Source: Eukaryota sp. GEM-RC1
Taxonomy: Eukaryota
Assembly (NCBI GenBank): GCA_040285855.1
Contig: JAUFOQ010000005.1
Span: 1,984,001 to 2,048,000, forward strand
Reading direction: 5' to 3'
DNA: 64,000 nt
In this document: piece after piece, positions 4,761-60,823 of the stretch
Numbering within the stretch: position 1 is the stretch's first letter
How the letters are laid out: the number at the start of each line of letters is the position of its first letter
Notes under the pieces: generated by a model
Told to the model about the DNA's origin: nothing
The model's input: only the letters and a program-made list of their open reading frames with translations
Databases searched by the model: none
Position numbers and translations under genes: made by a program

Positions 4761-6002
4761 TTGGCCACACCTCACCCTGAATCTTTGAAAAGCAATCGTT
4801 CACCGCCTTCCAGTGTCTCCTATGTGATGTCAAACTGTGACGAACTGTCGGTATCGTCTTCGTCCACATATTCTATTTCTATACGTGTCCATGTTCAGCA
4901 GATTTTGTTGATTCTTATCCATCTTCACTTGATGAGACGTCTTCTCAACCGTACTTTGGAAAATAATCATCATCGAACTAATCCTCAACTCACTGCTTTG
5001 AAAACAGCATTACCTGCATTCTTTGGACAAGCTGGCTATGTAAGTAATCACTTCCTTGATTCTTCATTCCAAGCAGTTCAAGTGTTTTTTCAAATACACA
5101 CCTTTCATGCTGATCTTAAACACGTTCCCAAACTACTTTCTCTTGCTTCTTTCTTTGGAGCAGATTTACCATCGGTGTTCTTGCACGTTTACAGTACATT
5201 AGAAATTGAGAAATTTCTTAATTATTCTGGTATAATTACAGGATTGAGAATCGAACTAAGGGAACCCTTTGATTTAGAGTTTCTAAACAATACTTGTTCT
5301 TTATTTCCACGTCTTAAACAACTAGAAGTAGAAGTGAAGGATCACACCTCTGTTTCTATGTCATTGATTGAAGCGTTGAAAACCAATACTACAATTACCA
5401 GTATTAATTTGAGTTTCAACTCTATTGGAGATGAAGGTGCCAGAGCTTTGGCAGAGGCGTTAAAAGTTAATCATTCAGTTCCAAGTGTTGATCTGATGAA
5501 CAACTCTATTGGAGATGAAGGTGCCAGAGCTTTGGCAGAGGCGTTGAAAGTTAATGATTCAGTGACAAGTATTGATCTGGAGTACAACTCTATTGGAGCT
5601 GAAGGTGCAAGAGCTTTGGCAAGTGCATTGAAAGTTAATGCTTCAGTTACAAGTATTAATCTAGGTCGAAACTGTATTGGAGATGAATGTGTAAGAGCTT
5701 TGGCAGATGCATTGAAAGTTAATTCTTCACTTACAAGTGTTATTTTAGGTGGAGATTCTACTGGATCTGAAGGTGCAAGAGCTTTGGCAGAGGCATTGAA
5801 CGTTAATTCTTCAGTTACAAGTGTTAATCTGGATGGAAACTCTATTGGAGATGAAGGTGTCAGAGCTTTGGCAGATGCATTGATAGTTAATACCAAAGTT
5901 GATTTACAGTATTCGACTCAAGTCCTTTCTGATAGTAGTTCAGATGATGCTATTGGTTATGAGTATAGTGATGCAACATGTACGGATTCAAATGATGAAT
6001 AA
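4761..6002 (+). CDS. LRR family copy 1: conserved N-terminal domain + 6 RNI-like 28-aa LRRs + acidic tail
   Basis: Open 413-codon frame with repeats ALAEALKVNxSVTSVxLxxNSIGDEGAR. The family ATG position reads TTG here, so the real start may be the internal Met near 4828. Confidence 0.85.
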   Translation: MATPHPESLKSNRSPPSSVSYVMSNCDELSVSSSSTYSISIRVHVQQILLILIHLHLMRRLLNRTLENNHHRTNPQLTALKTALPAFFGQAGYVSNHFLDSSFQAVQVFFQIHTFHADLKHVPKLLSLASFFGADLPSVFLHVYSTLEIEKFLNYSGIITGLRIELREPFDLEFLNNTCSLFPRLKQLEVEVKDHTSVSMSLIEALKTNTTITSINLSFNSIGDEGARALAEALKVNHSVPSVDLMNNSIGDEGARALAEALKVNDSVTSIDLEYNSIGAEGARALASALKVNASVTSINLGRNCIGDECVRALADALKVNSSLTSVILGGDSTGSEGARALAEALNVNSSVTSVNLDGNSIGDEGVRALADALIVNTKVDLQYSTQVLSDSSSDDAIGYEYSDATCTDSNDE

Positions 6003-6026
6003 AGACATAGTTTGTTTTCTAGTTCT

Positions 6027-7057
6027 TTAGACTTTAGAGTGATATTTATCAACTTCATCTCCAATAGAGTTATAACGCAGATTAACGCTTGTAACTGAAG
6101 TATAAACTATTAACGCCTGTGCCAAAGCTCTGGCACCTTCATCTCCAATAGAGTTATAACCCAGATTAACGCTTGTAACTGAAGTATTAACTTTCAACGC
6201 CTCTGCCAAAGCTTCAGCACCTTCATCACCAATAGAGTTGAGCCTCAGATCAACACCGGTTACTGATGAATTAACTTTCAACGCCTCTGCCAAAGCTCTG
6301 GCACCGTCATCTCTAAGAAAGTTGTTACACAGATTAACACTTGTAACAGAAGAATTAACTAATAACGCCTCTGCCAAAGCTCTAGCACCTTCAGCTCCAA
6401 TAGCGCTGTCCAACAGATCAATACTTGTAATTGTAGTATTGGTTTTCAACGCTTCAATCAATAAAATAGAAACAGAGGTGCGTTGTAACACTGATACTTC
6501 TAGTTGCTTAAGACGTGGAAATAAAGAAGACGAATTGTTTAGAAACTCTAAATCAGAGGGTTCACTTAGTTCAATTCTCAATCCTGTAATTAGACCAGAA
6601 TAATTAAGAAATTTCTCAATTTCTAAGGTTCCGTAAGTGTACAAGAAAACAGATTGTAGATCTGCTCCAAAGAAAGATGCAAGTGAAATTAGTTTGGGAA
6701 GGTGTTCAAGATCAGTATGAAAGGTGTGAACTTCAAAATACATTTGAACTGCTTGGAAGGAAGAATCAAGGAAGTGATTACTTACATGACCAACTTGTCC
6801 AAAGAATGCAGGTAGAACCGTTTTAAGAACAGTGAGATGGTGCTGAGGTTGATCATGAATATTATTAAGAGTCCGCTTGAGAAAACGTCTCAGCAAGTTA
6901 AGATGAATCAGAATCACCAAGGTCTGCTGAACATGGACTGGTTTAGAGGGAGAATCTGTGGTTGAAGACAATGTAGACAGTGCGTCACAGTTAGACTTCA
7001 CAGAGGAGACACTGAAAGGGGAACTCTTTGCAAAGGTTCAGAGGGAGGTGTGGCCAT
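6027..7057 (-). pseudogene. LRR family copy 2: 4 full + 1 partial LRR, frameshift after the ATG, 3'-truncated
   Basis: ATG at 7057 (CATCAATG context) is out of frame with ORF 6027-7001. The last repeat breaks off into VDKYHSKV* and there is no acidic tail. Confidence 0.8.
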
Positions 7058-7355
7058 TGATGGGTCAAAAAATGAGGGCATGCTTTTGGTTCATTCTTTC
7101 AAACTTACGGATGTCCATAATCCCCAACATGGTTTTCAAACCAAGAACCACCCGAACTCTCCAGTCACTAGAAGAACAATATTGTCAATGAATCCTTCTG
7201 GAAACCCCCAGTAAGTTACATAGTACGAGCATTTACTGAGTACGAGTGATATCTTGGTGTAATACGTAAGGATATTCAACTTGCTCTTGTGGAGCTAATG
7301 ATGTTTTTTGTTAATTTACACCCTTTACATTTAGGGTTGTAATTTGAGTCGAGTC

Positions 7356-7442
7356 TGATACCTAAGTATGGGAAAGGGAATAAAAGGTGTTTATGTTATG
7401 AAATTATACTACTTCATACTATACAATTACCTTTGGCTAACA
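7356..7442 (-). mobile_element. Solo LTR (87 bp) of the Gypsy family with 4-bp TSD AGTC
   Basis: Reverse complement reads TGTTAGCCAAAGGTAATTGTATAG...GGTATCA, closest to the 3621 LTR. AGTC at 7352-7355 and 7443-7446. Confidence 0.9.
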
Positions 7443-11007: not shown

Positions 11008-12504
11008 ATGACCACACCTCGCCCTGACCCTTTGTTGAAAAGGAGTCGTTCATCCCCTTCCAGTATCTGCTCTGTGATGTCTCACGGTGACGAACTGTCT
11101 GTATTGCCTTCAATCACACATCCTCCCTCTAAACGTGTCCAAGTTCAGCAGTCTTTGTTGGTTCTTATTCATCTTAACTTTCTGAGGCGTGTTCTCAAGC
11201 GTACTTTCGAAGATAATCATGGCCAAACTAAGCCTCAACTCAATGATTTGAGAAGAGTTTTACCTACATTCTTTGGACAAGTTGGTTATGTAAGCAATCA
11301 CTTCCTTGATTCGTCGTTCCAAGCAATTAAAGTGTATTTCGAAGTACACACCTTTCATGCTAATCTTCATGACATTCCCAAACTAACTTCACTTGCTTCT
11401 TTCGTTGGAGCAGATCTACAATCTGTTTTCTTGTACACTTACGGAAGCTTAAAAATTGAGAAATTTCTTAACTATTCTTGTATAATTACAGGATTGAGAA
11501 TCGAACTAAGGGAACCCTCTGATTTAGAATTTCTAAACAAATCTTCTTCTTTATTTACACGTCTTAAGCAACTAGAAGTAAAAGTGTTTCAACGCATTTC
11601 TGTATCTATGTTATTGATTGAAGCGTTGAAAACCAATACTACAGTTACAAGTGTTGATCTGGAGGGAATCTCTATTGGAGCTGAAGCTACCAGCGCTTTA
11701 GCAGAGGTGTTGAAAGTTAATACTTCAGTTACAAGTGTTTATCTATGTGGAAACTTTCTTAACAATGAATGTATTAGAGCTTTGGCAGAAGGGTTGAAGG
11801 TTAATGATTCAGTCACAACTGTATATCTGCGTGGAAACTCTATTGGAGCTGAAGGTGCAAGAGCTTTAGCAGAGGCGTTAAAAGTTAATGCTTCAGTTAC
11901 CAGTGTTGATCTAGGTGGAAACTCTGTCAGAGATGAAGGTGTCAGAGCTTTGGCAGAGGCGTTAAAAGTTAATGATTCAGTTACCAGTGTTGATCTAGGT
12001 GGAAACTCTATTAAAGATGATGGTGTCAGAGCTTTGGCAGAGGCTTTGAAAGTTAATTCTTCAGTAACAAGTGTTGATCTGAGGTTCAACTCTATTAGAG
12101 ATGAAGGTGTCAGAGCTTTGGCAGAGGCGTTAAAAGTTAATGTTTCAGTTACCAGTGTTGGTCTAGGTGGAAACTCTATTGGAGATGAAGGTGCCAGAGC
12201 TTTGGCAGAGGCGTTGCAAGTTAATTCTTCAATTACAAGTCTTGATCTGGGTCACAACTCTGTTCAAGCTGAAGGTGCTAGAGCTTTGGCAGAGGCGTTA
12301 AAAGTTAATGTTTCAGTTACCAGTGTTGATCTACGCGGAAACTCTATTAGAGATGAAGGTGCCACAGCTTTGGAAGATGCCTTGAAAGTTAATACCAAAG
12401 TTGATTTACAGTATTCACATCAAGCCCTATATGATAGTAGTTCAGATGATGCTATTGGTTATGATTATAGTGATGCAACTTATTCTGATTCAGATGATGA
12501 TTAG
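11008..12504 (+). CDS. LRR family copy 3 (intact, 9 LRRs, acidic tail)
   Basis: ATG-to-stop ORF of 498 aa with the full family architecture. Confidence 0.92.
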   Translation: MTTPRPDPLLKRSRSSPSSICSVMSHGDELSVLPSITHPPSKRVQVQQSLLVLIHLNFLRRVLKRTFEDNHGQTKPQLNDLRRVLPTFFGQVGYVSNHFLDSSFQAIKVYFEVHTFHANLHDIPKLTSLASFVGADLQSVFLYTYGSLKIEKFLNYSCIITGLRIELREPSDLEFLNKSSSLFTRLKQLEVKVFQRISVSMLLIEALKTNTTVTSVDLEGISIGAEATSALAEVLKVNTSVTSVYLCGNFLNNECIRALAEGLKVNDSVTTVYLRGNSIGAEGARALAEALKVNASVTSVDLGGNSVRDEGVRALAEALKVNDSVTSVDLGGNSIKDDGVRALAEALKVNSSVTSVDLRFNSIRDEGVRALAEALKVNVSVTSVGLGGNSIGDEGARALAEALQVNSSITSLDLGHNSVQAEGARALAEALKVNVSVTSVDLRGNSIRDEGATALEDALKVNTKVDLQYSHQALYDSSSDDAIGYDYSDATYSDSDDD

Positions 12505-13219
12505 AGACCTAGTTTTCTAGTTCTGGACGATGTTAGACTTTAGAGAGAAACTTATGAGAACAAGAAACCCGTACTATATCATGAATAAATAATCGTAAAA
12601 AAGTATAATAACGCAAATTAACTAAATGATAGAAAACACATTTTACACCCACGTGAGTATGTTGAATCTTTGAATACATTTACAATTCATATTACCAATC
12701 GAAGTTAAGGTGTGTTAAATTTGTATAGAAATGACTAAACCAACTGAACTAGGAATGTTAATTAGTTCAGATTATACAATTTAATCACAAGTGCAATCAA
12801 TCAAATGATTGGCCCAAATGATTTCTTCGATGGATATCACAATACTCTCAATCTGATTTCCTAACAGTATACTATTGTTTGAAAGGCTTACCCAAACGGA
12901 GAGTTATTTGAACCAATTTCATAAGAATATAAAATATATGCTTTGAGACTCAGTATTAGTTCCTGAAACTGTGAAAAGGATGATCAGAGAGTTCATTGTG
13001 TCATTTAGCTTGATATATGAAACAACGATATTAAAATAAATTTTTGCTCACTCAATGACCTCGCTCTTTGAGTTTGCATTTGTCTATTGAAGCATGAAAA
13101 TTAAATATGCGCCTACGTTTGGGTTTGCTCGACAATTCTGAATGTGTGGTAGCCATCGTCGTACTGCAACGTTTAGACGTGAACAAATCCATAAATTAAT
13201 GTTTAGGTGTTAGAGATTG

Positions 13220-14162: not shown

Positions 14163-14253
14163 TGTTAGCCACAGGTGTTAGTGAAGTGTTACTAGTACGT
14201 ATAATTTGATTTATAAACACCCTTTACCTTCCCCTTTGCACCTTTAGGTATTA
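14163..14253 (+). repeat. 5' LTR (91 bp, TG...TA)
   Basis: Identical to 20873-20963. Confidence 0.95.
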
Positions 14254-14268
14254 ATAATTATTATCCTC

Positions 14269-16900
14269 ATGGTAAAAAAGAGGAATCTTACTACAGCTGC
14301 TCCTAAGAAAGGAGTTACTAACCGCAGACAGCCAAGTAGGTCTGTCAAAAGACCAGAGTATCGAAGAGCTCTACCACCCCGATCGAAGTGCCTACTGAAT
14401 CCTCAGTAGATGAAGAGGACTTTGTGTCCGAACTCTCCTCACCCGAGAGTCTCTCCTCACACGAGAGCCCATCTTCAAACGTTGATGGAAGTTCCTTGGC
14501 TTCTTCGGAAGCCGGCGAAACGACTGGTATAAGTCCCTTGGGCTCTTCGGAGTCTGGCGGCAACCCTGGTCCTTTGGAGTCATCCATTGGACCAGAACAG
14601 GAAGATCCTCTTGGAATCAAGAAGGTTCTGGAGAAATACGGAGTCCCCGTTATCTCTTCAGATACCACTAGTACTCCGGGTGACAATGTTGTGGGTAATG
14701 CTACTTCGTCTGTAGTTCCACCAACATCATTGCCCTCTCATCGTGTTTCTGATTCTTCCTTGTTAGTTAGTAGTTTATTAAATAAAGATAACGTTGATCC
14801 TTCAGTTCCTCTGTCTAGAGAGGTTGAAGAGAGCCTTAGGCAACTTCAAACAGTCCTAGCTCAGCATAAGACCAGGGCAGAAGAAGCAAAACGACAGTTT
14901 CTGGAGCAACAGCAAAAAACAGCCAATCTTTCCATGACTGAGAGAGCTCTAGCTGTAGAACAACAAACCGGTTATGTGTCTAGACCTCATAGAGATGCAG
15001 TTCCCAACGATCTCATCCCGTTTGTAAGTCCGTACGATCAGAGTGTCTCCATCTCTGACTACGACTTGTGGCATCTTGCCAAATTTGCTCCCTGGCATCC
15101 CACTTTGCGTCATAGAATGCCTGCTGGAAGACATTACTTGCTGAAAAATGTTCCTCCTGGCACGTCTCCTCAAGCCATAAAACAGTTTTTGGGTGACTTA
15201 TATGATAGTAGAGCTGGTGATACTTATAGGTTTCCTTCCACCTACTCTTGGGATCCTAGACATGGTATCATCATTGAACCTTTAGTCCAGATATTCAGTG
15301 CTGATGGTCAGTCAGTTTCATATGAATACTCCGCCTGGTACTTACATTCGTTGAACAATAAACGCAAGTTATATCACAACGTTTCTGTAAGTACCGAATG
15401 GCTCCCTACTGGTCATCAGTATAGTCATTTACCTGCGGCGACAAGAGTTCTGGATAGTTTGTCAACTTCACCACAAGATGTTGACTCTGTCCCTGTTCAA
15501 CCTTTTTCTGGAATTGGTGGTTCCCAATTGGTACTCCCATTAGCTTCTCAAGCTATGTGTGAAAAAGCTACATTTGCTCCGAACCTTTCTGATTTAAATG
15601 GCTTAGATAGTGTTCAAAGATTCTTCCCTGGTGAAGTTTACAGACCTGAGCAGGTTGATAGATTTACACACTGTCTTAGAGATGGTATCTCTACCCAAAA
15701 TTTTGAAGCTCAATTTGGTGGTGAAGAAAGATTCATCAGCTTAGAAGAACATGAAAGTGTTTATCGTAAGTCAGAAGGCTTTGCTAAAGGTTGTGATGAA
15801 TCTATGTCCATGGCTCTCTCCTCAGAACAGCTTGCTCAAAATAGAAAAAATCATGTTGCTCACATGACCAGAAGTAGAAAAACTCCTAAACGATCAAATT
15901 CGATCGAGATAAGTGATCTGACTTCTCAATCAAAATCACCTTTGGCAGAACTTTCTGATGTCACTGACTCTATGTCTGAAGATAGCTCATCTGAAGACGA
16001 AGAACCGAACGTTTTGGCTGATACTCCCATCATTTTGTCTGGTGTCCCTCAAAGAAAAGATCGAACAAAGAAAAAGTCCATTTCAAAGAAATCAAGACCC
16101 AGCTGCCTCAAATCCGAGAGTCGCGAGGACATAATTAAGTTCATCCATGAATTTAGTTATTGGGCAATTCATGTCCGGAAACAATCAAATCGTAAAGACT
16201 TTGACACTCGTTTAGGTATCGCTCCAATCAATAAATTTGATCTCGTAAGACTCACTTTGTTAGAGATTGATCCTACTGGTGTTTCCGAATTCATTGATCG
16301 TCAATTGCTGAGTGACTGGAAGCTTCTAAATGTTCCAGGTCCAGATTCAAACATAACTGAAAAAGACCTTTGGTTCAGATTGGTTCTCCTGAGCCAATAC
16401 ACTTCTACTACTCAAGCTATGGGTGATCTGAAGAATCTTAGACTTAGTCAATCTAATGATCCATCCACTGTAATGAATCGGTACCTAAAGCTTGTTATCA
16501 ACATTTTAAAATGTTCGACAGCCATTTCCCTAGGTACTGGTAGAACTTTTCTCCCAGCTAGCATCTCAGCCGACTTAGTGTTATGTACACTCAATCCTCA
16601 GAAAGAAATTGCTGCTCTAAACGATCTCCAAGTTAAGTGGGAACACACTTTAAAGAACAATGAACATTTGCTTCCTGAATTTTTGAGTGAAGTAAAGACA
16701 GCTTGGATCGATTACAAGCGTTCGATGCCAACGACATCGTTTTCAAACTCTCAAAGAAGGTCTCGTGACCATTCCCGTGGAAATTCTCGTTTTCCTAGAA
16801 AGTCCTTCAACCAGAGGTACTCTAAACCCTCTGATGGTAAGTCCACTGACGTAGAATGTTTCAAATGTGGCAAAAAGGCCATTATGCTCCTGATTGTCGT
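14269..16900 (+). CDS. gag: Long Gag with C-terminal CCHC zinc knuckle
   Basis: ATG 14269 (MVKKRNLTT...) joins ORF 14388 via a 1-nt shift at an A-run (~14347). CFKCGK-KGHYAPDC is split between frames at an A5 run (~16872). Confidence 0.8.
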
Positions 16901-19900
16901 AAATCTCAGGATAATGCAAAGTCCAATAAGCGTAGGTCTGGTGATAGTCGTCCTGATAGTCGTTCTCGTAGTTTTAAAAATCATAAATCTCCTAGATACA
17001 TTTTCAAAATTGATAATGCACAACATAATTCAAACAAAAACACTACACCACTCAAATACACTAACCCTTTGGCTACTTTGATCACACAATCAAGTACGGG
17101 TAAAAGTGTTTCATCAGTTGAAACAATTCGTAGTCTCAACCAGAACCTAGGGTTCGAATCTAAAGGTAACGGTCCTTTATGTATTCGATTGTTAATCAAC
17201 AATGTACCAGTAGTAGGAGAATTTGACTCAGCAGCATCTTGTTCAGTCATTTCTCAAGATTTGATACGCTACTGTGAGATGACAACTACTGATAGTTGTA
17301 TTGAATACATCTCAGCGAATAATATTCGTGCTACTTCCTTAGGTAGTGCAATTGGTGTTCTGACGTTCAACGTCGGCAGCTTGGCCAACCAGATTCATGT
17401 TAAGCATACTCTACCTGTAGTTCCTGGAACGAAAATTCTCCTCATTGGTAGAGATTTGCAAGAAGAACTGGGGTTGCTTTCGGATGATGGTCTAGTCATC
17501 AGATTAGATAAAGAACATCGCACTATTCTCAATGCAGAGAGTGAATTTGATAAGAGAATGAGGTCTCCATCAATTTCGATTAATAGAGTTCAATCAAAAT
17601 GTTCAATAAATCAACATTCAACACATTTTCCTATTGATCAGTACGGTAACACTCAATTAGATATAAATCTGTTTGAAGAAACCATTGACAACTCTGGTTG
17701 CACGATAGAATTGGATGATCCTACAAGAAGAACGGAGCTTCTGAGCCTACTCAGTAAATACAAACAAGTCTTTTCAGAAGACATACATCCTGATGGTATT
17801 GATTGTCCACCCATGACAATTCCATTTTATGATGAATCTGTCACTGTATTTCGTCCTCCTAGAAGGCTTAACCCTGAAAAACAGCGTATAGCCGAAGAAA
17901 TTTTTAATGAACTTATACGACAAGGATGGGCCGTACCATCAACTGGTAAGTTCAGTAGTCCCATAGTCTTGGTGGTATATAATGATCACCGTAAGCCTCG
18001 TTTAACTGGAGATTTCAGTGGACCTGATGGGATTAATGCTAATACCAGACCGGTGAAACCAAATTTACCTCGGATCTGTGATGTTCTAGAGTTCCTTTCG
18101 AAAGCTAATTTCATTGGAACACTTGACCTTCCTAAAGCATTCTGGCAGCTAAATGTAGCTGAAGAAGATGTCGAGAAGACCAGTGTGTCTATACCTGGAA
18201 TGTCAATTAGCTTTAAACGAGCATGTTTTGGATTGAAAAACGTACCAGCAATCTTTCAAAACATCATGATGGAAATTTTCCATGTCGAAGGTGTTTTCAT
18301 TTATATTGATGATATAATTGTTGTAGGCAATACCTTTGAAGAGTTTATTTCAAGAATGAATCTAGTACTGGAACGAGCAGAACGTTTTAGAGTACGGATT
18401 GGATTGAAGAAGTGTAGGTTCACCACTTCTAGACATCCTAATAAGATTCTGGGCAGCAACTTTTGTAATAAAACCCGTTGCATAGATGATAAAAGAGTTT
18501 CGGCGTTGATTGAGTTACCTGCTCCTTCAACTTTACCTGAAGTTAGAAGTTTACTTGGTGCTTTGAATTATGTTCGTGAATGGATTCCGAATTATTCGAA
18601 CTTGACTGCATCAATCAATGAACTGACTCGTGGTAAACCCAAGAGAATTGCTTGGACAAAAGACCATGATGCTTTATTAGACAAAATTAAAACTGAAATA
18701 ATAAACCATATGGCTTTAGACTTACCTGATACTGATAAGAACATTATCATATCCACAGATGCATCCGACATTGCTGTTGGTGGTGTGATCTGGCAGGAAG
18801 AAAATCCTCCAGCTCCTCCAGGTACTCCGTTAGAAGAACGTAGAGTTAGACCTGTATCGTTTTATAGCCGTTTACTCAATGATAGTCAACAGAATTGGGC
18901 AGCTATCCAGAAAGAGCTGTATGCCATTCTCTTGATTCTGACCGAATCTAGTTTAGAAGGTTTCCTATTAAGTAGGCATTTGACGATCTTTACAGATCAT
19001 AGGAACCTTGCTTATCTGATTTCAGCTCCAGAGAAGAATCGTATTGTCAAACGATGGATTCCAATTCTCTCGGAGTTTGATTTTGAGATAGAGCATATAG
19101 CTGGTACAAACAATCAATGGGCTGACATGTTATCACGTGTCATTGACCGTCGCCCAGTTGAAACAATCAAATCTCTGTTGATCTCAAATCATACCATCAG
19201 AAATGATATAATTCTTTCTCACGAAGGGTTAATCTATGATGAAGCTGATTACGTTGAGATGCTTCCTTGTAACACCAACATACTAGCTATCAAGAGTCTA
19301 CAAGACCTCTCATCATACAATAAATTGCCTTTATTTGATTCTTGGTTATCAACCATTCGAGCTGAACAACATAAAGCTATCAATGAAGGAGATCAACTGT
19401 TTCAGGATTCAACACTGTGTACTATGAGCAATGTATACATCAACTCCAAGAACAAGATTTTGATTCCATCTAGTTTGAGAACGAAAGTTCTTTACATGCT
19501 ACATGGATTAGTCCAGTCAGGACATCCAAACAAGAAACGAAGTTTGGAAATATTGTTCAATAGTGGTTACTTTTGGCCAAGTATGAAAGCTGACATGGTC
19601 AAACATGTTATGCAATGCCCTGCGTGTCAGAAAACGGCACCTGTCCCTAAAAAGATAATTGAATCGACGGGTTCTCTATGGGCTGATAGACCTTTTGCTA
19701 GACTTAATGTCGACACAATTGGTCCACTTCCAAAAGATCAAAATGGAAACCAATTCCTATTGGTGTTTGTAGATTCTTTCACCAGATACACCATTTTGAG
19801 CCCCCTCGAAGAACTTAACAGTAGAGAAGTAGCATATCGTCTTGTGTGGGATGTGATTGCTATCTTTGGAATACCGTTTTGTATCCATAGTGATAATGGT

Positions 19901-20872
19901 ACCGAGTTTGCCAATGCTATTTTCGAGGCAATATGTAACCTACTGGCGATTGAAGTAAGTCGTTCGATTCCTCATTTCTCCCAGAGTAATGGACTGGTGG
20001 AACGACGTCACAGAGACGTTCTGCAAAGCCTACGTCGTCTTCTTGTGGACTTCAATGATTATGACAATTGGTCAACGTACATTCCAACTGTACAATTGCA
20101 AATCAACGCAACGAATAGTTCTGTGACTGGGCACTCACCTTATGAATTGATGTTTGGTAGTGACATAAGTCCTGGTGCAGATCCTAGTAATTTACTAGCT
20201 GCTGTTGAGAAATCAACAAAGAATGTTCCGTTTATTAACGACATTAAAATGAAACTGGATCGTCTTACTAAAAAGAGAGAAGAGGCAGAGGTTCGTCAAT
20301 CAAGACTCAAGCCAAAGAAGAAGTCTGGCCCCAGTCAATCATTCAATGTTGGAGACCTTGTTTTAAAAGCATCCAAAACTAGTAAGCTTCATGGTAATTA
20401 CACTGGACCTTATTTAGTTGTCTCAATTGATTCGAAATCGTCAGTTTCCTTAAAGAATCTGATCACTGGATATGTTAGTAAGACTAGCATTCATCAATGT
20501 AAGATCTTTCAATCAGATCTACCTGCTGATCATGATCTCCACAGAGCAATTGCTTCTGGGGATTCTGAAGAACACATCGTGGTTAAGATCCTAGATAGGT
20601 TCAATACACCCGATGGTGAACATTGTACTGTACCTTGGTTTGGTGGTGATACTTCATCAGTTCCCACCAAGGACATCAAGAACACCAAGGCGTATAGTGA
20701 ATTTGTAAAATTAGAAAATGTAGATTTATTTTGTAATAGTAGAAACGTAGCTAAGAGTAAACCCACTAAGCTTAAACGTACCTCAAGTAGTATGAGTATT
20801 CCAAAGTCATCGTCTGTAGTTAAGACACCTGTAGCTAAGAGGACAAGGAGCTCAAGAAGAGAGAAGAGGTAA
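16856..20872 (+). CDS. pol: Pol: aspartic protease, RT, RNase H, integrase, GPY motif, chromodomain-like C-terminus
   Basis: FDSAAS; LDLPKAFWQ...FGLKNVP...YIDD; TDAS/ELYAI/TDHRNL/ADMLSR; H-x6-H...CPAC, DTIG, SDNG, VERRH; GNYTGPY; EEHIVVKILD...VPWFG. Confidence 0.95.
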   Translation: MFQMWQKGHYAPDCRKSQDNAKSNKRRSGDSRPDSRSRSFKNHKSPRYIFKIDNAQHNSNKNTTPLKYTNPLATLITQSSTGKSVSSVETIRSLNQNLGFESKGNGPLCIRLLINNVPVVGEFDSAASCSVISQDLIRYCEMTTTDSCIEYISANNIRATSLGSAIGVLTFNVGSLANQIHVKHTLPVVPGTKILLIGRDLQEELGLLSDDGLVIRLDKEHRTILNAESEFDKRMRSPSISINRVQSKCSINQHSTHFPIDQYGNTQLDINLFEETIDNSGCTIELDDPTRRTELLSLLSKYKQVFSEDIHPDGIDCPPMTIPFYDESVTVFRPPRRLNPEKQRIAEEIFNELIRQGWAVPSTGKFSSPIVLVVYNDHRKPRLTGDFSGPDGINANTRPVKPNLPRICDVLEFLSKANFIGTLDLPKAFWQLNVAEEDVEKTSVSIPGMSISFKRACFGLKNVPAIFQNIMMEIFHVEGVFIYIDDIIVVGNTFEEFISRMNLVLERAERFRVRIGLKKCRFTTSRHPNKILGSNFCNKTRCIDDKRVSALIELPAPSTLPEVRSLLGALNYVREWIPNYSNLTASINELTRGKPKRIAWTKDHDALLDKIKTEIINHMALDLPDTDKNIIISTDASDIAVGGVIWQEENPPAPPGTPLEERRVRPVSFYSRLLNDSQQNWAAIQKELYAILLILTESSLEGFLLSRHLTIFTDHRNLAYLISAPEKNRIVKRWIPILSEFDFEIEHIAGTNNQWADMLSRVIDRRPVETIKSLLISNHTIRNDIILSHEGLIYDEADYVEMLPCNTNILAIKSLQDLSSYNKLPLFDSWLSTIRAEQHKAINEGDQLFQDSTLCTMSNVYINSKNKILIPSSLRTKVLYMLHGLVQSGHPNKKRSLEILFNSGYFWPSMKADMVKHVMQCPACQKTAPVPKKIIESTGSLWADRPFARLNVDTIGPLPKDQNGNQFLLVFVDSFTRYTILSPLEELNSREVAYRLVWDVIAIFGIPFCIHSDNGTEFANAIFEAICNLLAIEVSRSIPHFSQSNGLVERRHRDVLQSLRRLLVDFNDYDNWSTYIPTVQLQINATNSSVTGHSPYELMFGSDISPGADPSNLLAAVEKSTKNVPFINDIKMKLDRLTKKREEAEVRQSRLKPKKKSGPSQSFNVGDLVLKASKTSKLHGNYTGPYLVVSIDSKSSVSLKNLITGYVSKTSIHQCKIFQSDLPADHDLHRAIASGDSEEHIVVKILDRFNTPDGEHCTVPWFGGDTSSVPTKDIKNTKAYSEFVKLENVDLFCNSRNVAKSKPTKLKRTSSSMSIPKSSSVVKTPVAKRTRSSRREKR

Positions 20873-20963
20873 TGTTAGCCACAGGTGTTAGTGAAGTGTT
20901 ACTAGTACGTATAATTTGATTTATAAACACCCTTTACCTTCCCCTTTGCACCTTTAGGTATTA
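20873..20963 (+). repeat. 3' LTR (91 bp)
   Basis: Identical to the 5' LTR; directly follows the PPT AAGAAGAGAGAAGAGG and the pol stop codon TAA. Confidence 0.95.
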
Positions 20964-21048
20964 ACTTCGGATACCGATATCTGTCTCTGTTTAGAGACTG
21001 CTTCTTTTGCGAGTTCAGGGCATTCTTTTAAAATAGTAATACTAATAA

Positions 21049-22423: not shown

Positions 22424-24595
22424 ATGACTATACCTCGTCATCTGCCTTTGTTGAAAAGGAGTCGTTCATCCCCTTCCAGTATCTCCTCTGTGATGTCTAA
22501 CTCTGACGAACTGTCTGTATTGCCTTGAACCACACATCCTTTCTCTAAACGTGTCCAAGTTCAGCAGTGTTTGTTGGTTCTGATTCATCTTAACTTGCTG
22601 AGACGTGTTCTCAAGCGTACTTTCGAAGATAATCATGGCCAAACTAAGCCTCAACTCAATGATTTGAGAAGAGTTTTACCTACATTCTTTGGACAAGTTG
22701 GTTATGTAAGCAATCACTTCCTTGATTCTTCGTTCCAAGCAGTTAAAGTCTATTTTCAATTACACACCTTTCATGCTGATCTTGAAGACATTTCCAAACT
22801 AACTTCACTTGCTTCTTTCGTTGGAGCAGATCTACAATCTGTTTTCTTGTACACTTACGGAAGCTTAAAAATTGAGAAATTTCTCAACTATTCTGGTATA
22901 ATTACAGGATTGAGATTCGAACTAAGGGAACCCTCTGATTTAGAGTTTCTAAACAATTCTTCTTCTTCATTTCCACGTCTTAAGCAGCTAGAAGTAGAAG
23001 TGACGAGACGAAACGCCTCTGTTTCTATGTTATTAATTGAAGTGTTGAAAACCAATACTACAGTTACAAGTGTTAATCTAAGTGAAAACTCTATTGGAGC
23101 TGAAGGTGCCAGAGCTTTGGCAGATGCGTTGAAAGTTAATACTTCAGTTACAAGTGTTAATCTAGGTGTAAACTCTGTTGGAGATGATGGTGTTAGAGCT
23201 TTGGCACAGGCGTTGAAAATTAATACTTCAGTTACAAGTATTGATCTGTGTTACAACTCTATTGGAGCTGAAGGTGCCAGAGCTTTGGCAGAGGCGTCGA
23301 AAGTTAATGCTTCAGTTACAAGTGTTAATCTAGATGGAAACTCTATTGGAGCTGAAGGTGCCAGAGCTTTGGCAGAGGCGTTGAAAGTTAATGCTTCAGT
23401 TACAAGTATTAATCTGAAATACAACTCTATTGGAGCTGAAGATGCCAGAGCTTTGGCAGAGGCGTTAAAAGTTAATGCTTCAGTTACCAGTGTTGATCTA
23501 GGTGGAAACTCTGTCAGAGGTGAAGGTGTCAGAGCTTTGGCAGAGGCGTTAAAAGTTAATGCTTCAATTACAAGTGTTGATCTGAGGTTCAACTCTATTA
23601 GAGATGAAGGTGCCAGAGCTTTGGCAGAGGCGTTGAAAGTTAATTCTTCAGTAACAAGTGTTGATCTGAGGTTCAACTCTATTAGAGATGAAGGTGCCAG
23701 AGCTTTGGCAGAGGCGTTAAAAGTTAATGTTTCAGTTACCAGTGTTGATCTAGGTGGAAACTCTATTGGAGATGAAGGTGTCAGAGCTTTGGCAGAGGCG
23801 TTTAAAGTTAATGTTTCAGTTACCAGTGTTGATCTAGGTCGAAACTCTATTGGATATGAAGGTGTCAGAGCTTTGGCAGAGGCGTTGAAAGTTAATTCTT
23901 CAGTAACAAGTGTTGATCTGAGGTTCAACTCTATTAGAGATGGAGGTGCCAGAGCTTTGGCAGAGGCGTTAAAAGTTAATGTTTCAGTTACCAGTGTTGA
24001 TCTAGGTCGAAACTCTATTGGAGATGAAGGTGTCAGAGCTTTGGCGGAGGCGTTAAAAGTTAATGTTTCAGTTACCAGTGTTGATCTAGGTGGAAACTCT
24101 GTCAGAAATGAAGGTGTCAGAGCTTTGGCAGAGGCGTTAAAAGTTAATGATTCAGTTACCAGTGTTGATCTAGGTGGAAACTCTATTAAAGATGATGCTG
24201 TCAGAGCTTTGGCAGAGGCTTTGAAAGTTAATTCTTCAGTAACAAGTGTCGATCTAGGTGGAAACTCTATTGGAGATGAAGGTGCCAGAGCTTTGGCAGA
24301 GGCGTTGCAAGGTAATTCTTCAATTACAAGTCTTGATCTGGGTCACAACTCTGTTCAAGCTGAAGGTGCTAGAGCTTTGGCAGAGGCGTTAAAAGTTAAT
24401 GTTTCAGTTACCAGTGTTGATCTACGTGGAAACTCTATTCGAGATGAAGGTGCCACAGCTTTGGAAGATGCCTTGAAAGTTAATACCAAAGTTGATTTAC
24501 AGTATTCACATCAAGCCCTATATGATAGTAGTTCAGATGATGCTATTGGTTATGATTATAGTGATGCAACTTATTCTGATTCAGATGATGATTAG
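22424..24595 (+). pseudogene. LRR family copy 4 (17 LRRs) with one premature TGA at codon 35
   Basis: ATG 22424 is in frame with ORF 22571-24595; TGA at 22526-22528 where copy 3 has TCA. The C-terminal tail is identical in protein to copy 3. Confidence 0.88.
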
Positions 24596-27500: not shown

Positions 27501-27864
27501 TTGAAATCAATCTGAGTAGTAGTTCGATCTACTTGCAATTTTGGCACATTGGAATGGATTATTATACAGATATTCTTGATGTGACACGTCATCAAAAAGA
27601 ACAGTCTATTACAATGAAGTCGATCAATGATATACACTAGCATGTATTTTGAACACAACAACACCTCGCTTTGATGACAAGTATCAGAATGTCTGCGAGA
27701 TGGATTCATAATGGAAGAAATAGATTCACTGCCAATACTGCTCCTCTACTGACTGGAGAGTCCGGATGGTCCTTGGATCAATACCAAGTGGGGATGGTAG
27801 ACAGTAGTAACTGACTACTGGTAAGTTCAGAGAATGAAGAAAGTTTTCATTTTGTGATTTATCA
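24596..27864. repeat. Segmental-duplication spacer, copy B (empty Gypsy site)
   Basis: Near-identical to copies A and C; uninterrupted GTATGACTTCGGATACC. Confidence 0.9.
27280..27470 (-). pseudogene. Old divergent LRR gene relic, head-to-head with the LRR family gene (also ~47690-47880, partial ~21990-22060)
   Basis: Minus strand translates, with one frameshift, to MSESLTVNFTVTQINLDDNSIG/EGVIALTHVLEVKINIIFISLMNYRIGDEGEIAL. Confidence 0.7.
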
Positions 27865-28994
27865 ATGACCACACCTCCCTCTGAACCTTTGCAAAGGAGT
27901 CGTTCATCCTCTTCCAGTATCTCCTCTGAGATGTCTAACGGTGACGCACTGTCTACATTGTCTTCAACCACACGTCCTCCCTTTAAACGTGTCCGTGTTC
28001 AGCAGAGCTTGGTGATTCTGATTCATCTTAACTTGCTGAGACGTTTTCTCAAGCGGACTCTTAAAAATATTCATGATCAACCTCAGCACCATCTCACTGT
28101 TCTTAAAACGGTTCTACCTACATTCTTTGGACAAGTTGGTCATGTAAGTAAACACTTCCTTGATTCTTCCTTCCAAGCAGTTCAAATGTATTTTGAAGTT
28201 CACACCTTTCATACTGATCTTGAACACCTTCCCAAACTAATTTCACTTACTTCTTTCTTTGAAGCAGATCTACAATCTGTTTTCTTGCACGCTGATGGAA
28301 CCTTAGAAATTGAGAAATTTCTAAATTATTCTGGTCTAATTACAGGATTGAGAATCGAACTAAGGGAACCCGCTGATTTAGAGTTTCTAAACACTTCTTC
28401 TTCTTTATTTCCACACCTTAAGCAACTAGAGTGGAAGTGGTTTTAAACCGCTCTCTTTCTATGTTATTGATAGAAGCGTTGAAAACCAATACTACAGTTA
28501 CAAGTGTTAATCTAGGTAGCAACTCTATTGAAGATGAAGGTGCCAGAGCTTTGGCAGAGGTATTGAAAGTTAATGTTTCAGTTACCAGTGTTAATCTGGA
28601 GTCCAACTTTATTGGAGATGAAGGTGTCATAGAGTTGGCAGAGGCATTGAAAGTTAATACTTTAGTTACCAGTGTTAATCTGAGGGAAAACTTTATTGGA
28701 GATGACGGTGTCATAGATTTGGCAGAGGCATTGAAAGTTAATGTTTCAGTTACCAGTGTTAATCTGGAGTCCAACTTTATTGGAGATGAAGGTGTCATAG
28801 AGTTGGCAGAGGCATTGAAAGTTAATACTTCAGTTACAAGTGTTAATCTGTGGGATAACTCTATTGAATGTGAAGGTGCTAGAGCTTTGGCAGAGGCTAT
28901 AAAAGTTAATCCCAGGGTTGAAATAGAGTATTCCCTGGATGACGACAGCAGTGATGCAAACGATGATTTTGGTTATCAGTACAACGTGTTCTGA
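27865..28994 (+). pseudogene. LRR family copy 5 (5 LRRs), single frameshift at ~28430
   Basis: ORFs 27865-28446 and 28431-28994; CTAGAGTGG versus family CTAGAAGT, one A missing, possibly a sequencing error. Confidence 0.85.
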
Positions 28995-48271: not shown

Positions 48272-49440
48272 ATGACCACACCTCCCTGTGAACCTTTGCA
48301 AAGAGTTCCCCTTCCAGTGTCTCCTCTGTGAAGTCTAACGGTGACGAACTGTCTACATTGTCCTCAACCACACATCCTTTCTCTAAACGTGTCCAAGTTC
48401 AGCAGTCTTTGTTGGTTCTTATTCATCTTAACTTGCTGAAACGTCTTCTCAAGTGTACTTTCGAAGATAATCATGGCCGAACTCAGCCTCAACTCAGTGA
48501 TTTGAGAAGAGCTTTACCTACGTTCTTTGGACAAGTTGGTTATGTGAGCAATCACTTCCTTGATTCTTCATTCCAAGCAGTTAAAGTCTATTTTCATTTA
48601 CACACCTTTCATGCTAATCTTCATGACATTCCCAAACTAACTTCACTTGCTTCTTTCTTTGAAGCAGATCTACAATCTGTTTTCTTGTACACTTACGGAA
48701 GCTTAAAAATTGAGAAATTTCTTAATTATTCTGGTATAATTACAGGATTGAGAATCGAAATAAGAAAACCCTCTGATTTAGAGTTTCTAAACGCTTCTTC
48801 TTTATTTCCACGTCGTAAGCAACTAGAAGTGGTAGTGATCCAACGCACCTCTATTTCTATGTTATTGATTGAAGCGTTGAAAACCATTACTTCAGTTACA
48901 AGTTTTAATCTGTTGGACAGCGCTATTGGAGCTGAAGGTGCCAGAGCTTTGGCAGATGCATTGAAAGTTAATGCTTCTGTTACAAGTGTTAATCTGTGTA
49001 ACAACTTTCTTAGAGATGGCGGTGCCAGATCTGTGGCAGAGGCGTTGAAAGTTAATTCTTCAGTAACCGGTGTTGATCTGAGGCTCAACTCTATTGCAGA
49101 TGACGGTGCCAGAGCTTTGGCAGAGGCGTTGAAAGTGAATGCTTCAGTTACAAGTATTAATCTGGATTACAACTCTATTGGAGATGAAGGTGCCCGAGCT
49201 TTGGCAGACGCATTGAAAGTTAATGCTTCAGTTACAAGTATTAATCTGGGTTACAACTCTATTGGAGATGAAGGTGCCCGAGCTTTGGCAGAGGCGTTGA
49301 AAGTTAATGCTTCTGTTACAAGTGTTAATTTGAGGAATAACTCTATCGGTGATGAAGGTGCCAGAGCTTTGGCAGATGCGTTGAAAGTTAATACTTCAGT
49401 TACAAGTGTTTTTCTGAGGGACAAAACCTTTGGTAATTAA
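48272..49440 (+). pseudogene. LRR family copy 6 (6 full LRRs + partial), 5' frameshift shared with copy 2, no acidic tail
   Basis: ATG 48272 is out of frame with ORF 48328-49440; same CAAAGAGTTCCCC deletion as copy 2. Confidence 0.82.
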
Positions 49441-50021: not shown

Positions 50022-50767
50022 GTGATCACCCCTCGTCCTGAGCCTTTGAAAATCAGTCGTTCACCCTCTTTTACTATCTCCTGTGTGATGTCTAACTGTG
50101 TCGAACTATTATTATTGTCTTCAACCAATCCTTCCTCTAAACCTATCCATGTTCAGCAGTCTTTGTTTATTCTTATCCATCTCCATTTGCTCAGACGTCT
50201 TTTTCAAGCGCGCTCTCGAACTCCGAAGGAGTCCTCTGCGATTTAATCATCAACTCACTGCTTTGAAAACATTTTTACCTGCATTGTTTGGACAAGTTGG
50301 CTATGTAAGTAATCACTTCCTTGATTCTTCATTCCAAGCAGTTAAAGTGTATTTCGAAGTACGCACCTTTCATGCTAATCTTCATGACATTCCCAAACTA
50401 CCTTCACTTGCTTCTTTCTTTGGAGCAGATCTACAATCTGTTTTTCTTGTAAACTTACGGGAGCTTAAAAATTAGTAAATTACTTAATTATTTTGGTATA
50501 ATTACAGGATTGAGAATCGAACTAAGGGAACCCTCTGATTTAGAGTTTCTAAACAATTCTTCTTCTTTATTTCCTCGTCTTAAGGAACTAGAAGTAACAG
50601 TGTTTCAACGCACCTCTGTATCTATGTTATTGATTGAAGCGTTGAAAGTGAATTCTTCAGTAACAAGTGTTGATCTGATGTTCAACTCTATTGGAGCTGA
50701 AGGTGCCAGAGCTTTAAGAGAGACGTTAAAAGTTCATTCTAGACTTACAATCTGGGGTGTAAGCTGA
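50022..50767 (+). pseudogene. LRR family copy 7, degraded, single LRR
   Basis: Family motifs are spread over ORFs 50022-50246, 50098-50475 and 50510-50767. Confidence 0.85.
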
Positions 50768-52688: not shown

Positions 52689-52803
52689 CCGCAGTTATAG
52701 TGAGAGTAAAACTCACACTTCACTCATATCACGTTAAAGGATTGATGATTTTTCGTTTGTTACACGGGGAAAATGGCCAGACTATAATAGAAATAGTTTC
52801 AAC

Positions 52804-55043: not shown

Positions 55044-56288
55044 TTAATAATCATCTGAATCAGAACCAGTTGCATCACTATACTCATAACCAGTATCATC
55101 AGCTGAACTACTATCAGAAAGGACTTGAGGTGAATACTGTATGTCAACTTTGGTATTAACTTTCAATGCATCTGCCAAAGCTTTAGCACCTTCATCTCTA
55201 ATAGAGTTTTCTTTTAGATCAATACTGGTAACTGAAGAATGAACTTTCAACACGTCTGCCAAAGCTCTAGCACCTTCATCTCCGATAGAGTTTTTAAACA
55301 GGTCAACACTGGTAACTGAAATATTAACTTTCAAGGCATCTGCCAAAGCTCTAGCACCTTCATCTCCGATAGAGTTTTCCTCCAGATCAACACTTGTAAC
55401 TGAAGTATTGGTTTTCAACGCATCTGCCAGAGCTCTTGCACCTTCAGCCCCAATAGAGTTGTAACCCAAATTAACACTGGTGACTGAAGCATTAACCTTC
55501 AAAGCCTCTGCCAAAGCTCTGACACCATTATCTCCAATACAGTCGCTACCGACAAAAACACTTGTAACTGAAGTATTAATTTTCAACACATCTGCCAAAG
55601 CTCTTGCACCTTCAGCTCCAATAGAGTTGTCCCACAGAGAAACACTTGTAACTGTAGTATTGGTTTTCAAAGCTTCAATCAATAACATAGAAACAGAGGT
55701 GCGATGGAACACTGTTACTTCTAGTTGCTTAAGACGAGGAAATAGAGAAGAAGATTTGTTTAGAAACTCTAAATCAGGAGGTTTTCGTATTTCGATTCCC
55801 AATCCTGTAATTATACCAGAATAATTGAGAAATTTGGCAATATCTAAGGTTCCGTCAGCGTGCAAGAAAACAGATTGTAGATCTGCTCCAAAGAAAGAAG
55901 CAAGTGAAATTAGTTTGGGAAGGTGTTCAAGATCAGCATGAAAGGTGTGTAATTGAAAAAACACTTTAACTGCTTGGAATGAAGAATCAAGGAAGTGACT
56001 ACTTACATAGCCAACTTGTCCAAAGAATGCAGGTAATGCTGTTTTCAAAGCATCAAGGTTAGGATTAGTTCCATCATGATTATTTTCGAGAGTACGGTTG
56101 AGAAGACGTTTCAGCAAGTGTAGATGGATAAGAATCAACACAGATTGCTGAACATGGACATGTTTAGAGGGAGTAGGTATGGATGAAGACATGACCAACA
56201 GTTCGCCACAGTAAGACATCCCGGAAGAGAAACTGAGAGGGGATGAACGCCTGCTTTTCAACAAAGGTTCAGGATGAGGTGTGACCAT
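55044..56288 (-). CDS. LRR family copy 8 (intact, 6 LRRs, acidic tail)
   Basis: ATG-to-stop ORF of 414 aa with the full family architecture. Confidence 0.92.
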   Translation of the reverse strand: MVTPHPEPLLKSRRSSPLSFSSGMSYCGELLVMSSSIPTPSKHVHVQQSVLILIHLHLLKRLLNRTLENNHDGTNPNLDALKTALPAFFGQVGYVSSHFLDSSFQAVKVFFQLHTFHADLEHLPKLISLASFFGADLQSVFLHADGTLDIAKFLNYSGIITGLGIEIRKPPDLEFLNKSSSLFPRLKQLEVTVFHRTSVSMLLIEALKTNTTVTSVSLWDNSIGAEGARALADVLKINTSVTSVFVGSDCIGDNGVRALAEALKVNASVTSVNLGYNSIGAEGARALADALKTNTSVTSVDLEENSIGDEGARALADALKVNISVTSVDLFKNSIGDEGARALADVLKVHSSVTSIDLKENSIRDEGAKALADALKVNTKVDIQYSPQVLSDSSSADDTGYEYSDATGSDSDDY

Positions 56289-59257: not shown

Positions 59258-59269
59258 ATCAGTCAACCT

Positions 59270-59686
59270 AAAATGTTAGATACATGTTCTGGTTGTTGTT
59301 TTGTATTCGGTTTTGTTCATTTACTTGAGTCATTTAAGTCATTTGTTGATTTCATCTTATCAGAAGGATCATAGTTTAGAAACTTTAGTTAGTGTCTGTT
59401 AGTTATTAACTTCTGCAAATGCATTTATTTCACTGATTGATCATAAACCCAGTTTTTTTCTTATCTTCCTCTTTTTATCTTTGAATTAACAAACCTAGGC
59501 ACGTTTGGAACCACATTTGAAGCTTTTTGATGTTAAGTTTTGCAAATCAGACAACAATTAGAATTGCGGCGTTTTGAATTGTCTCTAAAAATTTCAAATA
59601 TTGTTGAGGAAGTGAGATTTTTCCACATTTCGTTTGTTTCTCTAATAAGAAGAGTACGGACGGTTTAGTCGATATCTACTTCTTTA
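59270..59686 (+). pseudogene. Diverged duplicate fragment of the DH-PH-like gene (43125-43443) carrying a LINE 3'-end insertion
   Basis: Direct nucleotide similarity. Insert 59362-59458 matches the reverse complement of 7564-7657 and is flanked by TCTTATC repeats. Confidence 0.85.
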
Positions 59687-59709
59687 GAACTGAAAACGAT
59701 GTCAAAAAC

Positions 59710-60823
59710 CATCATCTAAATCAGAATAATGCATCACTATACGCAACATCAATAATTTCATTCAACCAACTATAATACATGGCTTGAGGTGAATACTTTA
59801 CTTGAGCTCTGGTACTAACTTTCATCGAGTTTACCAAAGCTCTGACACATTCATATTCAATAAAGTTTCCAATTAGATCAATAATGGTAACTTTTTTTTA
59901 AACTAGACTTTATTTGCGGCAACTAAATTAAACGAGGTCTATGACACAATAAACTAAACGTGGTTTTAGGTTATCTGGCATTCAACTCAACAAAGCCAAT
60001 TTCGACAAAGTACAAGCAAAGAACGATGAATTACTGTACTAAGCGGCCATCTAAAATGCTCCGAGAGCGGTTTAAAGCGACGGCAGGCCTTTCCACACGT
60101 CCTCTGCTGGAACTTCGGGAAACTAGCGATGAGAGAAGGAGCCAGAGAAACCGACCCACAATCAGTATGAGACTGCGAAGAAGGAGACCCAGAATTCAAA
60201 CAAGTTGTATGTAGAAGGTAAGAGTAACCTATATGAAAAATTAACGGTAAAGAGCACAACAACTGCTGATCCAAGAAAATGATCGTAGAGGGAGGTCCGG
60301 GGCCATGAAGCGGAAGAACAAGATTTTTCAATCGTAGTCTAGAGAGGGAAATCAATAATGGTAACTGAAGCATTAACTTTCAAAGCCTCTGCCAAAGCTC
60401 TGACACCTTCATCTTCAATGAAGTTTCCAATTAGATCAATACTGGTAACTGAAACATTAACTTTCAAAGCATCTGCCAAAGCTCGGGCACCTTCAGCTCA
60501 AATATAGTTGAAACCCAGATTAACACTTGTAACTGCAGTATCAGTATTCAGCGCTGCAATCAATAACATAGAAACAGAGGCATTTCGTCTCGCCACTGCT
60601 ACTTCTATCTGCTTGCTTAGGTCGTGAAAATACAACAGAAAAATTGTTTAGAAACTCTAAATCAGAGGGTTCCATTTCTAGGATTGTTAATCCTGTAATT
60701 ATACCAGAATAATTAAGAAATTTCTCAATTTCAAAGGTTGCGTAAACGTCCAAGAAAACAGATAGCAGATCTGTTCCAAAGAAAGAAGCAAGTGAAATTA
60801 GTTTTGGGAAGTCTTTGAGATCA
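59710..60823 (-). pseudogene. LRR family copy 9, 5'-truncated, degraded and interrupted by a retroposed insert
   Basis: KLISLASFFGTDL...IEKFLNYSGIITGL, about 3 LRRs at 59820-60540 and a KYSPQ-type tail. Confidence 0.82.
59893..60350 (-). mobile_element. SINE-like/retroposed insert (~460 bp) with poly(A) tail and 15-16-bp TSD
   Basis: ATCAATAATGGTAACT at 59877-59892 and 60351-60366; T-run at the left end; GC-richer than the flanks. Confidence 0.85.

Follow-up and report, generated by a model that had tools for sequence, protein, structure and literature searches.

A lineage-restricted leucine-rich repeat family of Eukaryota sp. GEM-RC1 with two diversifying codons per repeat and a putative F-box-like N-terminus

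How does a single-celled eukaryote come to encode arrays of leucine-rich repeats (LRRs) that share a conserved framework and differ above all in two neighbouring residues, and what might such proteins do? The question is raised by a 64,000-nucleotide stretch of Eukaryota sp. GEM-RC1 (contig JAUFOQ010000005.1, positions 1,984,001 to 2,048,000; the window, to which all coordinates below refer), in which nine related loci, g1 to g9, carry 84-bp repeat units. The evidence presented here places these loci in a large, lineage-restricted family in which two codons are under diversifying selection and units are swapped. The best explanation, to which we assign a probability of roughly 45%, is that its members are F-box-type receptors that bring varied, probably foreign proteins to the Skp1-cullin-F-box (SCF) ubiquitin ligase.

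Selection at two codons of the repeat

The nine family loci were identified with the first 210 residues of g8 as tblastn query, one before each array, and Tandem Repeats Finder placed 84-bp arrays at eight places in the window. A sliding scan against one reference unit recovered 60 units of 84 bp (scores 48-84 of 84; at most 45 in five shuffles). Three partial terminal units (at 28881 in g5, 49363 in g6 and 60401 in g9) were left out, giving 57 full units (6, 5, 9, 17, 5, 6, 1, 6 and 2 in g1 to g9), all of them distinct; the paralog and repeat counts of an earlier note on this DNA agree with these numbers. Between L18 and N21 the units hold 32 distinct dipeptides, including all 23 listed in that note. 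Amino-acid entropy is highest at unit positions 19 (2.86 bits) and 20 (3.13 bits), with 2.38 bits at position 11, 1.78 at 24, 1.61 at 17 and 1.50 at 25. In pairwise counts, the proportions of replacement (pN) and silent (pS) differences are 0.63 and 0.43-0.44 in the dipeptide codons, and 0.13-0.17 and 0.22-0.25 in the framework. The framework is conserved, not fixed: its earlier description as hardly changing was right about conservation but overstated, since positions 11, 17, 24 and 25 vary and both kinds of difference accumulate.

Per-codon entropy and site dN/dS, which had been proposed as a check, were run on the window units, and variation is not even: the entropy peak and omega above 1 both fall on codons 19-20. 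When M1a was compared with M2a on the 57 units, twice the log-likelihood difference (2dL) was 48.0. M2a put 7% of sites at omega 4.3, and no site other than codons 19 and 20 had a posterior above 0.5 in this class with dN/dS>1 (1.0 for these two). The same codon model gave omega of about 1.5 at position 11, about 0.1 at the strand residues T14 and S15, which are under purifying selection, and 0.1-0.35 at structural and strand positions of the framework. The subsets yielded 2dL of 22.9 (intact genes, 21 units), 39.5 (without g4) and 37.9 (disrupted genes only). Because units recombine, mosaic trees were used in 16 of 24 null simulations with omega up to 1, and the largest 2dL in the whole set was 9.4. 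Among the 91 unit pairs with at most six framework differences, differences per site reach 0.37 in the dipeptide versus 0.058 elsewhere.

Tree-free neutral simulations (400 runs, matched pi3 0.18-0.24) produced a site with 15 or more codons in no more than 1% of runs, and 15 are observed at codon 20; a pi of 0.68 at first plus second positions arose in at most 0.3% of the matched runs. The 12 codons observed at codon 19 are attained in up to 9% of neutral runs, and at higher silent diversity (0.31-0.32) 15 codons appear in up to 6.5%. Selection fits better than a pure mutational hotspot (omega 1, local rate 3.5x; lnL -287.2 versus -291.7; p about 0.003), and codons 19-20 contain no stop codon in the 57 units. 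The M2a omega, the null and neutral simulations and the intact-only subset agree with the earlier proposal that diversification is concentrated at two codons. Diversifying selection focused on two codons per repeat, at about four times the silent rate, is supported.

Protein sequences from outside the window show the same entropy peak at positions 19 and 20: 3.50 and 3.41 bits for 24 close paralogs with 125 units, and 3.50 and 3.75 bits for 62 distant paralogs with 212 units. Altogether, 146 dipeptides occur in 337 non-window units. The first repeat, which is position-equivalent among members, shows 12 and 10 residues at the variable pair between invariant flanks.

The N-terminal domain and the family that carries it

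The repeats had been described earlier as bare binders comparable to nucleotide-binding LRR receptors (NLRs) or agnathan variable lymphocyte receptors (VLRs). An N-terminal domain of about 160 residues, missed in that description and common to all nine loci, in some as a remnant, points to ubiquitin-ligase substrate receptors instead. The order is a disordered S/P-rich tail, a three-helix F-box-like motif, four degenerate strand-helix repeats and 1-17 ribonuclease inhibitor (RI)-type LRRs of 28 residues. In the AlphaFold2 model of g8, residues 1-41 form the disordered tail and residues 42-113 the three helices (pLDDT about 45-90); the four degenerate repeats come out as irregular strand-helix units, and the regular LRRs after them have pLDDT >90. 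The LRR part matches Pfam LRR_6 and, in Foldseek, NOD2, NLRPs and ribonuclease inhibitor (E about 1e-10 to 1e-13), with which it shares repeat length, consensus and predicted fold; the modelled strand-helix horseshoe and the 28-residue LxxLxLxxN consensus identify the repeats as RI-like LRRs.

The mapping onto a predicted structure that had also been suggested was carried out with the g8 model and DSSP, and it places the pair directly after the strand (strand 215-217, then W219-D220). The earlier placement of the pair at the end of the concave strand stands insofar as the pair adjoins that strand, but it lies in the strand-to-helix loop, and the exposed T14 and S15 evolve under purifying selection. 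In plant NLRs and VLRs, variation lies in the xxLxLxx strand pattern, which differs from the situation at T14 and S15 here. By hydropathy, none of the three intact proteins has a transmembrane segment (their best Kyte-Doolittle windows of 19 residues score 1.2-1.5), in line with the earlier statement that neither a transmembrane nor a hydrophobic signal stretch is visible. The label cytosolic is unproven, however, as an NLS-like motif is enriched in the N-terminal tails: K[KR]x[KR], which we take to be a predicted nuclear localisation signal (NLS) of the c-Myc type, is present in 13 of the 23 close members and in 13 of the 102 distant ones, where shuffles give 0.5 and 1.5; these counts come from non-independent paralogs.

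Several lines of evidence bear on the nature of the three predicted helices, which in g8 span residues 44-113 (55950..56159, minus strand) and include a variable insertion. The family consensus reads [FL][QP][QE]SLLxLIxxHLL, a variable loop and LPxFFxKVGYVSxRFF. In the ESM Atlas, F-box clusters ranked first for two different paralogs queried over different spans (P0001 residues 40-205, 0.89; P0083 residues 44-125, 0.87), scores below 0.9 that serve as leads only. A two-block profile search against 25 bacterial F-boxes, with one insertion allowed, scored 19.6 (other windows 9-13; P 0.007 in 300 column shuffles and 0.03 in 60 block shuffles). The match falls in the expected F-box register, FQQSLLVLIHLHL on LPIELQAYILSFL and KVGYVSQRF on RASLVCKGW, with an insertion of 26 residues. 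Helices 2-3 are the most constrained part (pN 0.086, pS 0.239) and the insertion is nearly neutral (pN 0.229, pS 0.244). The F-box proline is kept in 22 of 161 members, as LPES or FPES, and a C-terminal LRR domain stands behind the motif in all nine window loci. In a viral fold library, nine of the 50 top matches were labelled F-box, none of them significant (best E 0.005). Foldseek against the PDB returned two matches to the N-terminal model at E<=0.001, both to one de novo design and neither a clear match; VIA-align listed enolase-superfamily barrels best (Z 7.5) and no F-box among its matches, and the hidden Markov model (HMM) matched no PDB sequence. That N-terminal part was modelled without Skp1 at pLDDT of about 50-70, so that poor fold matches do not exclude an F-box. 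On balance, the N-terminal helices are probably a divergent F-box with a 26-residue insertion.

Under its own name, a GEM-RC1 Skp1 is absent among the 120 Skp1 matches listed. The Skp1 searches also brought up full- or near-full-length homologs on contigs of a viral collection (L005, L009, L013, L045, L086, L095), several of them labelled as giant-virus metagenome-assembled genomes.

A search with the N-terminal domain returned 43 proteins, four encoded in the window and 39 from Eukaryota sp. GEM-RC1, a skoliomonad; 22 of these 39 carry locus tags ranging from 4989 to 5923. Its HMM, run against 1.84 billion representatives, reached 188 clusters (50% identity) at E<=0.001. Twenty of 141 further clusters found in this way were looked up, with distant matches favoured, and all 59 relatives that could be named, these 20 included, come from Eukaryota sp. 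GEM-RC1; their contigs come in ten lengths. No related locus was found in the viral, metagenome and prokaryote collections. Skoliomonas sp. GEM-RC is described as a free-living, bacterivorous soda-lake metamonad whose genome has 48% repeats and encodes 14,268 predicted proteins (PMC11316075); if the window derives from it or from a near relative, as is presumed, the family would make up more than 1% of its genes. The main text of that description does not mention LRRs, and its searchable supplements hold no F-box, Skp1, cullin, LRR or NLRC3 (PMC11316075). No description of the GEM-RC1 LRR family was found in the literature covered, most subscription journals lying outside it.

Members reach 1636 aa. 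A long subfamily of 700-1636 aa (P0133, P0127, P0112, P0182, P0114 and similar proteins) has the same N-terminal domain followed by different, long-period, degenerate LRR-like repeats that Pfam mostly does not recognise; by a strict pattern, canonical units are present in 90 of the 184 collected proteins, and the long members inspected bear other degenerate LRR-like repeats. An extra N-terminal RRM-like domain occurs in seven proteins (P0031, P0033, P0042, P0046, P0085, P0094, P0160; weak Pfam RRM_1 matches in three), a SWIM finger in P0045 and a RING-like finger in P0101. These additions are possibly integrated decoys, or else fused gene models.

Gene copies, mosaics and neighbours

Expansion, change of repeat number, mosaic genes and frequent pseudogenisation are all shown in the window. 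Tandemly duplicated blocks measure about 4-5 kb: the spacer plus g5 (24741..28910, plus strand) is 93% identical to the spacer plus g6 (45120-49308), a tandem duplication, and 11620-14162 is 92% identical to 23711-26245. The 3' part of g4 is likewise 92% identical to that of g3. Mosaic structure is evident in g5, which shares 99% identity with g2 over the F-box-like part and 77-81% over the first LRRs, and in g6, whose F-box-like part is 92-95% identical to g3/g4 and 76% to g2; the LRRs of g6 are 91-93% identical to those of g2, and its 5' end is also of g2 type. A PHI-like recombination test on 102 informative sites gave p=0.001, and for 35 of the 57 units the nearest copy is located in another gene. 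The birth-and-death mode of evolution proposed in the earlier note is borne out by these tandem duplications, mosaic genes and pseudogenes.

Unbroken frames are found only in g1 (from the second Met), g3 and g8. Gene g1 (4761..6002, plus strand; P0011, 391 aa) has TTG in place of the usual first ATG and is open from the Met at 4830; its six units (5358-5861) display SF-MN-EY-GR-GG-DG and are followed by an acidic C-terminal tail. The intact g3 (11008..12504, plus; P0012, 498 aa) has nine units, EG-CG-RG-GG-GG-RF-GG-GH-RG, and an NLS-like PLLKRSR in its tail; the intact and modelled g8 (55044..56288, minus; P0001, 414 aa) has six, WD-GS-GY-EE-FK-KE. Frameshifts, a stop or truncation affect the others. 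Tail-to-tail with g1 lies g2 (6027..7057, minus), with five units (LD-CN-RL-GY-RY), a shortened C-terminus and a frameshifting deletion near codon 11; it has this frameshift in common with g6 (48272..49440, plus), where it precedes six full units (LD-CN-RL-DY-GY-RN) and a partial one. The 17 units of g4 (22424..24595, plus; units at 23027-24454) follow an in-frame TGA at codon 35, and g5 (27865..28994, plus), with GS-ES-RE-ES-WD, carries a 1-bp frameshift near 28440. The single MF unit of g7 (50022..50767, plus) is accompanied by two +1 frameshifts, both in T runs, and g9 (60339..60828, minus) is a 5'-truncated remnant with a frameshift, stops, two full units (GF, IG) and a partial one. Some of these breaks, sited in short homopolymers, could be assembly errors. 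A chance or reverse-strand artefact was considered for the arrays as a whole and rejected; the minus-strand open reading frames (ORFs) over them are shadows of the repeats.

Between g3 and g4, the spacer contains a Ty3/gypsy-type retrotransposon (14163..20964, plus), which belongs to the context and not to the family. It looks complete, with gag and pol in different frames, RNase H and integrase, and the duplicated copies of the spacer have empty sites for it near 26242 and 46638; its long terminal repeats (LTRs) of 92 bp are identical, which indicates a recent insertion. A second, older and partial Ty3 copy with stops (1-3714) is 86% identical. Remnants of DDE_1 transposases are among four further intervals (56602-57206 and 7617-9177, minus; 30755-31553 and 58467-58850, plus); the other fragments there, which have no Pfam support, resemble pieces of a non-LTR retrotransposon and of hAT by eye. 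Apart from mobile DNA, a dynein heavy chain gene (33620-40165, plus) runs through three frames and ends shortly past AAA1; neither frame shift coincides with an intron of GT..AG pattern, and the gene is a truncated pseudogene or an assembly problem. Between g7 and g8, a 441-aa ORF (51369-52694, minus) has a resemblance by eye to BTB and SPRY domains, which would suggest a possible Cul3 adaptor; Pfam gives nothing at E<=1.

Competing readings and known systems

On the reading as F-box-type receptors, the conserved helices would dock on Skp1, and the stacked repeats are predicted to align the variable pairs as a ridge along the strand-to-helix loop edge of the horseshoe, each gene presenting a different dipeptide string. 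Such a changing ridge may track changing ligands, for example proteins of viruses, intracellular bacteria or transposons, and ligands once bound would be ubiquitylated. Foreign or selfish proteins are the likely driver because diversifying selection with such a focus is usually the mark of an arms race. Several points weigh against this reading. The codon models are our own GY94-type code, run on a FastTree tree and one 84-bp alignment from a single window; with the local rate left free on a grid, omega values of 2-9 fit about equally well, and framework omega is lax (0.5-0.66). In bacteria, 55 units of this LRR type from 7 loci likewise vary most at positions 19-20. These positions are therefore structurally free and variability alone is generic; the excess over it is shown only by the DNA-level test, and the DNA-level tests cover only the window, where six of nine genes are broken. 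As to the F-box itself, most members have Q for the F-box P and S/T for the E, no member scanned matches a Pfam F-box even at E 10, hhalign of the family against an F-box profile scores a non-significant 10.7 where shuffles reach 14.9, and shared-feature counts were low for both ESM queries.

The lack of Pfam and hhalign support also speaks for a diversifying LRR repertoire whose N-terminal helices would be a capping, oligomerisation or signalling domain, the proteins acting as stand-alone inhibitors or sensors like ribonuclease inhibitor. The evidence for selection and shuffling fits this equally, NOD2, NLRPs and ribonuclease inhibitor have the folds nearest to that of the LRR part, and the RRM-, SWIM- and RING-like extras in some members recall integrated decoys. 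We nevertheless regard it as rather unlikely, as both ESM queries and the two-block match favour an F-box and no relay domain was seen: the P-loop is found in 0 of 184 proteins, and NACHT, NB-ARC and kinase domains are absent in Pfam scans. A fuller version of the F-box interpretation, in which an anaerobic metamonad has a combinatorial, ubiquitin-based innate immune repertoire of hundreds of F-box/LRR receptors, many of them nucleus-targeted, with dipeptide strings assembled from swappable 84-bp modules and renewed by gene conversion, with viral, endosymbiont and transposon targets and with a decoy-bearing subfamily, is in our view doubtful.

Other drivers can be envisaged for the same F-box-type receptors. 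The enrichment of NLS-like motifs in the tails, the recent Ty3 insertion and the DDE remnants in the window, and the large repetitive share of the skoliomonad genome would suit an internal conflict, in which nuclear receptors track transposon or other selfish proteins, or changing endogenous substrates, rather than pathogens. Yet the motifs are short and putative, and the exact motif is missing in g1 and g8; this driver seems quite unlikely. About as improbable is mostly non-functional drift, with unequal crossing-over in transposon-rich DNA, relaxed constraint and a local mutation or micro-conversion hotspot. Tandem block duplications would explain the copy number, two thirds of the window copies are broken, silent diversity is raised at codons 19-20, and the hotspot-only model is just about 4.5 log units worse. 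Against drift, omega=1 is still rejected when the local rate is left free, the variable codons are free of stops, structural and strand positions and helices 2-3 are under purifying selection, and the domain persists in 188 clusters that share less than 50% identity.

Known systems resemble the GEM-RC1 family in part. Like FBXL-type proteins, its members have LRRs after the putative F-box; FBXL proteins are usually few and conserved with fixed host substrates, whereas this family is large, young and diversifying. An NLR identity was rejected, as no NACHT or NB-ARC Pfam domain occurs in the window ORFs or in 146 relatives and GxxxxGK[ST] is found in none of 184 proteins. The agnathan VLR cassette system was likewise set aside, since each window array has its own N-terminal domain or remnant and no signal or transmembrane stretch (1.2-1.5), and so was a diversity-generating retroelement: the reverse transcriptase in the window is of Ty3 type, with RNase H, integrase and LTRs, and codon 19 varies among GGT, CGT, TGT, AGT, GAT and others, changes that are not restricted to A. 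Bacterial loci whose repeats are of this 28-residue type or closely similar were also encountered (L103, L114, L119, L124-L127), several of them from intracellular lineages.

Caenorhabditis F-box proteins have conserved F-box N-termini, positively selected C-termini and tandem species-specific expansions (PMC8665587), and in C. elegans the load of microsporidia is kept down by SCF components (PMC4063957). The GEM-RC1 family is similar in its hundreds of genes, birth-and-death evolution, conserved N-terminus and selected substrate end, and in the proposed targeting of foreign proteins (PMC8665587, PMC4063957). It differs in its unicellular metamonad host and in having a putative divergent F-box and RI-type LRRs whose swappable 84-bp units are almost identical and have a hot spot of two codons, where Caenorhabditis has a canonical F-box with FTH/FBA2 substrate domains. 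Conserved repeats exchanged within and between genes, with few selected positions, are also seen in fungal NLRs (WD40 repeats of Podospora NWD/HNWD, ANK, TPR), but these have NACHT/NB-ARC and effector domains and no LRRs, whereas our family is without a nucleotide-binding domain (PMC4986451). Beyond animals and land plants, large, shuffled LRR repertoires with a proposed role in recognition exist in Ectocarpus ROCO (PMC3341825) and in the Tetrahymena LRR genes with 90-bp exons (PMC6564038). Both shuffle one-repeat exons, unlike the GEM-RC1 arrays, which lie in uninterrupted frames (PMC3341825, PMC6564038). Ectocarpus ROCO LRRs are under diversifying selection, as here, but are coupled to a GTPase, with the selected sites on the concave face (PMC3341825); the Tetrahymena expansion is larger and its LRRs are reportedly for the most part under purifying selection (PMC6564038).

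How unicellular eukaryotes recognise intracellular invaders is largely an open question, and for nematodes and plants a defence by fast-evolving ubiquitin-ligase adaptors has been proposed. Fungi, brown algae and ciliates already offer examples of conserved repeats combined with shuffling and focused positive selection, which limits the surprise. The diversifying family itself is real and well supported, its F-box membership is probable, and an immune role may be considered. With one 28-residue scaffold and two hot positions per repeat, specificity would be tractable by module swaps. If the interpretation as F-box-type receptors is true, a large independent case in a deep-branching metamonad would extend adaptor-based defence across eukaryotes.

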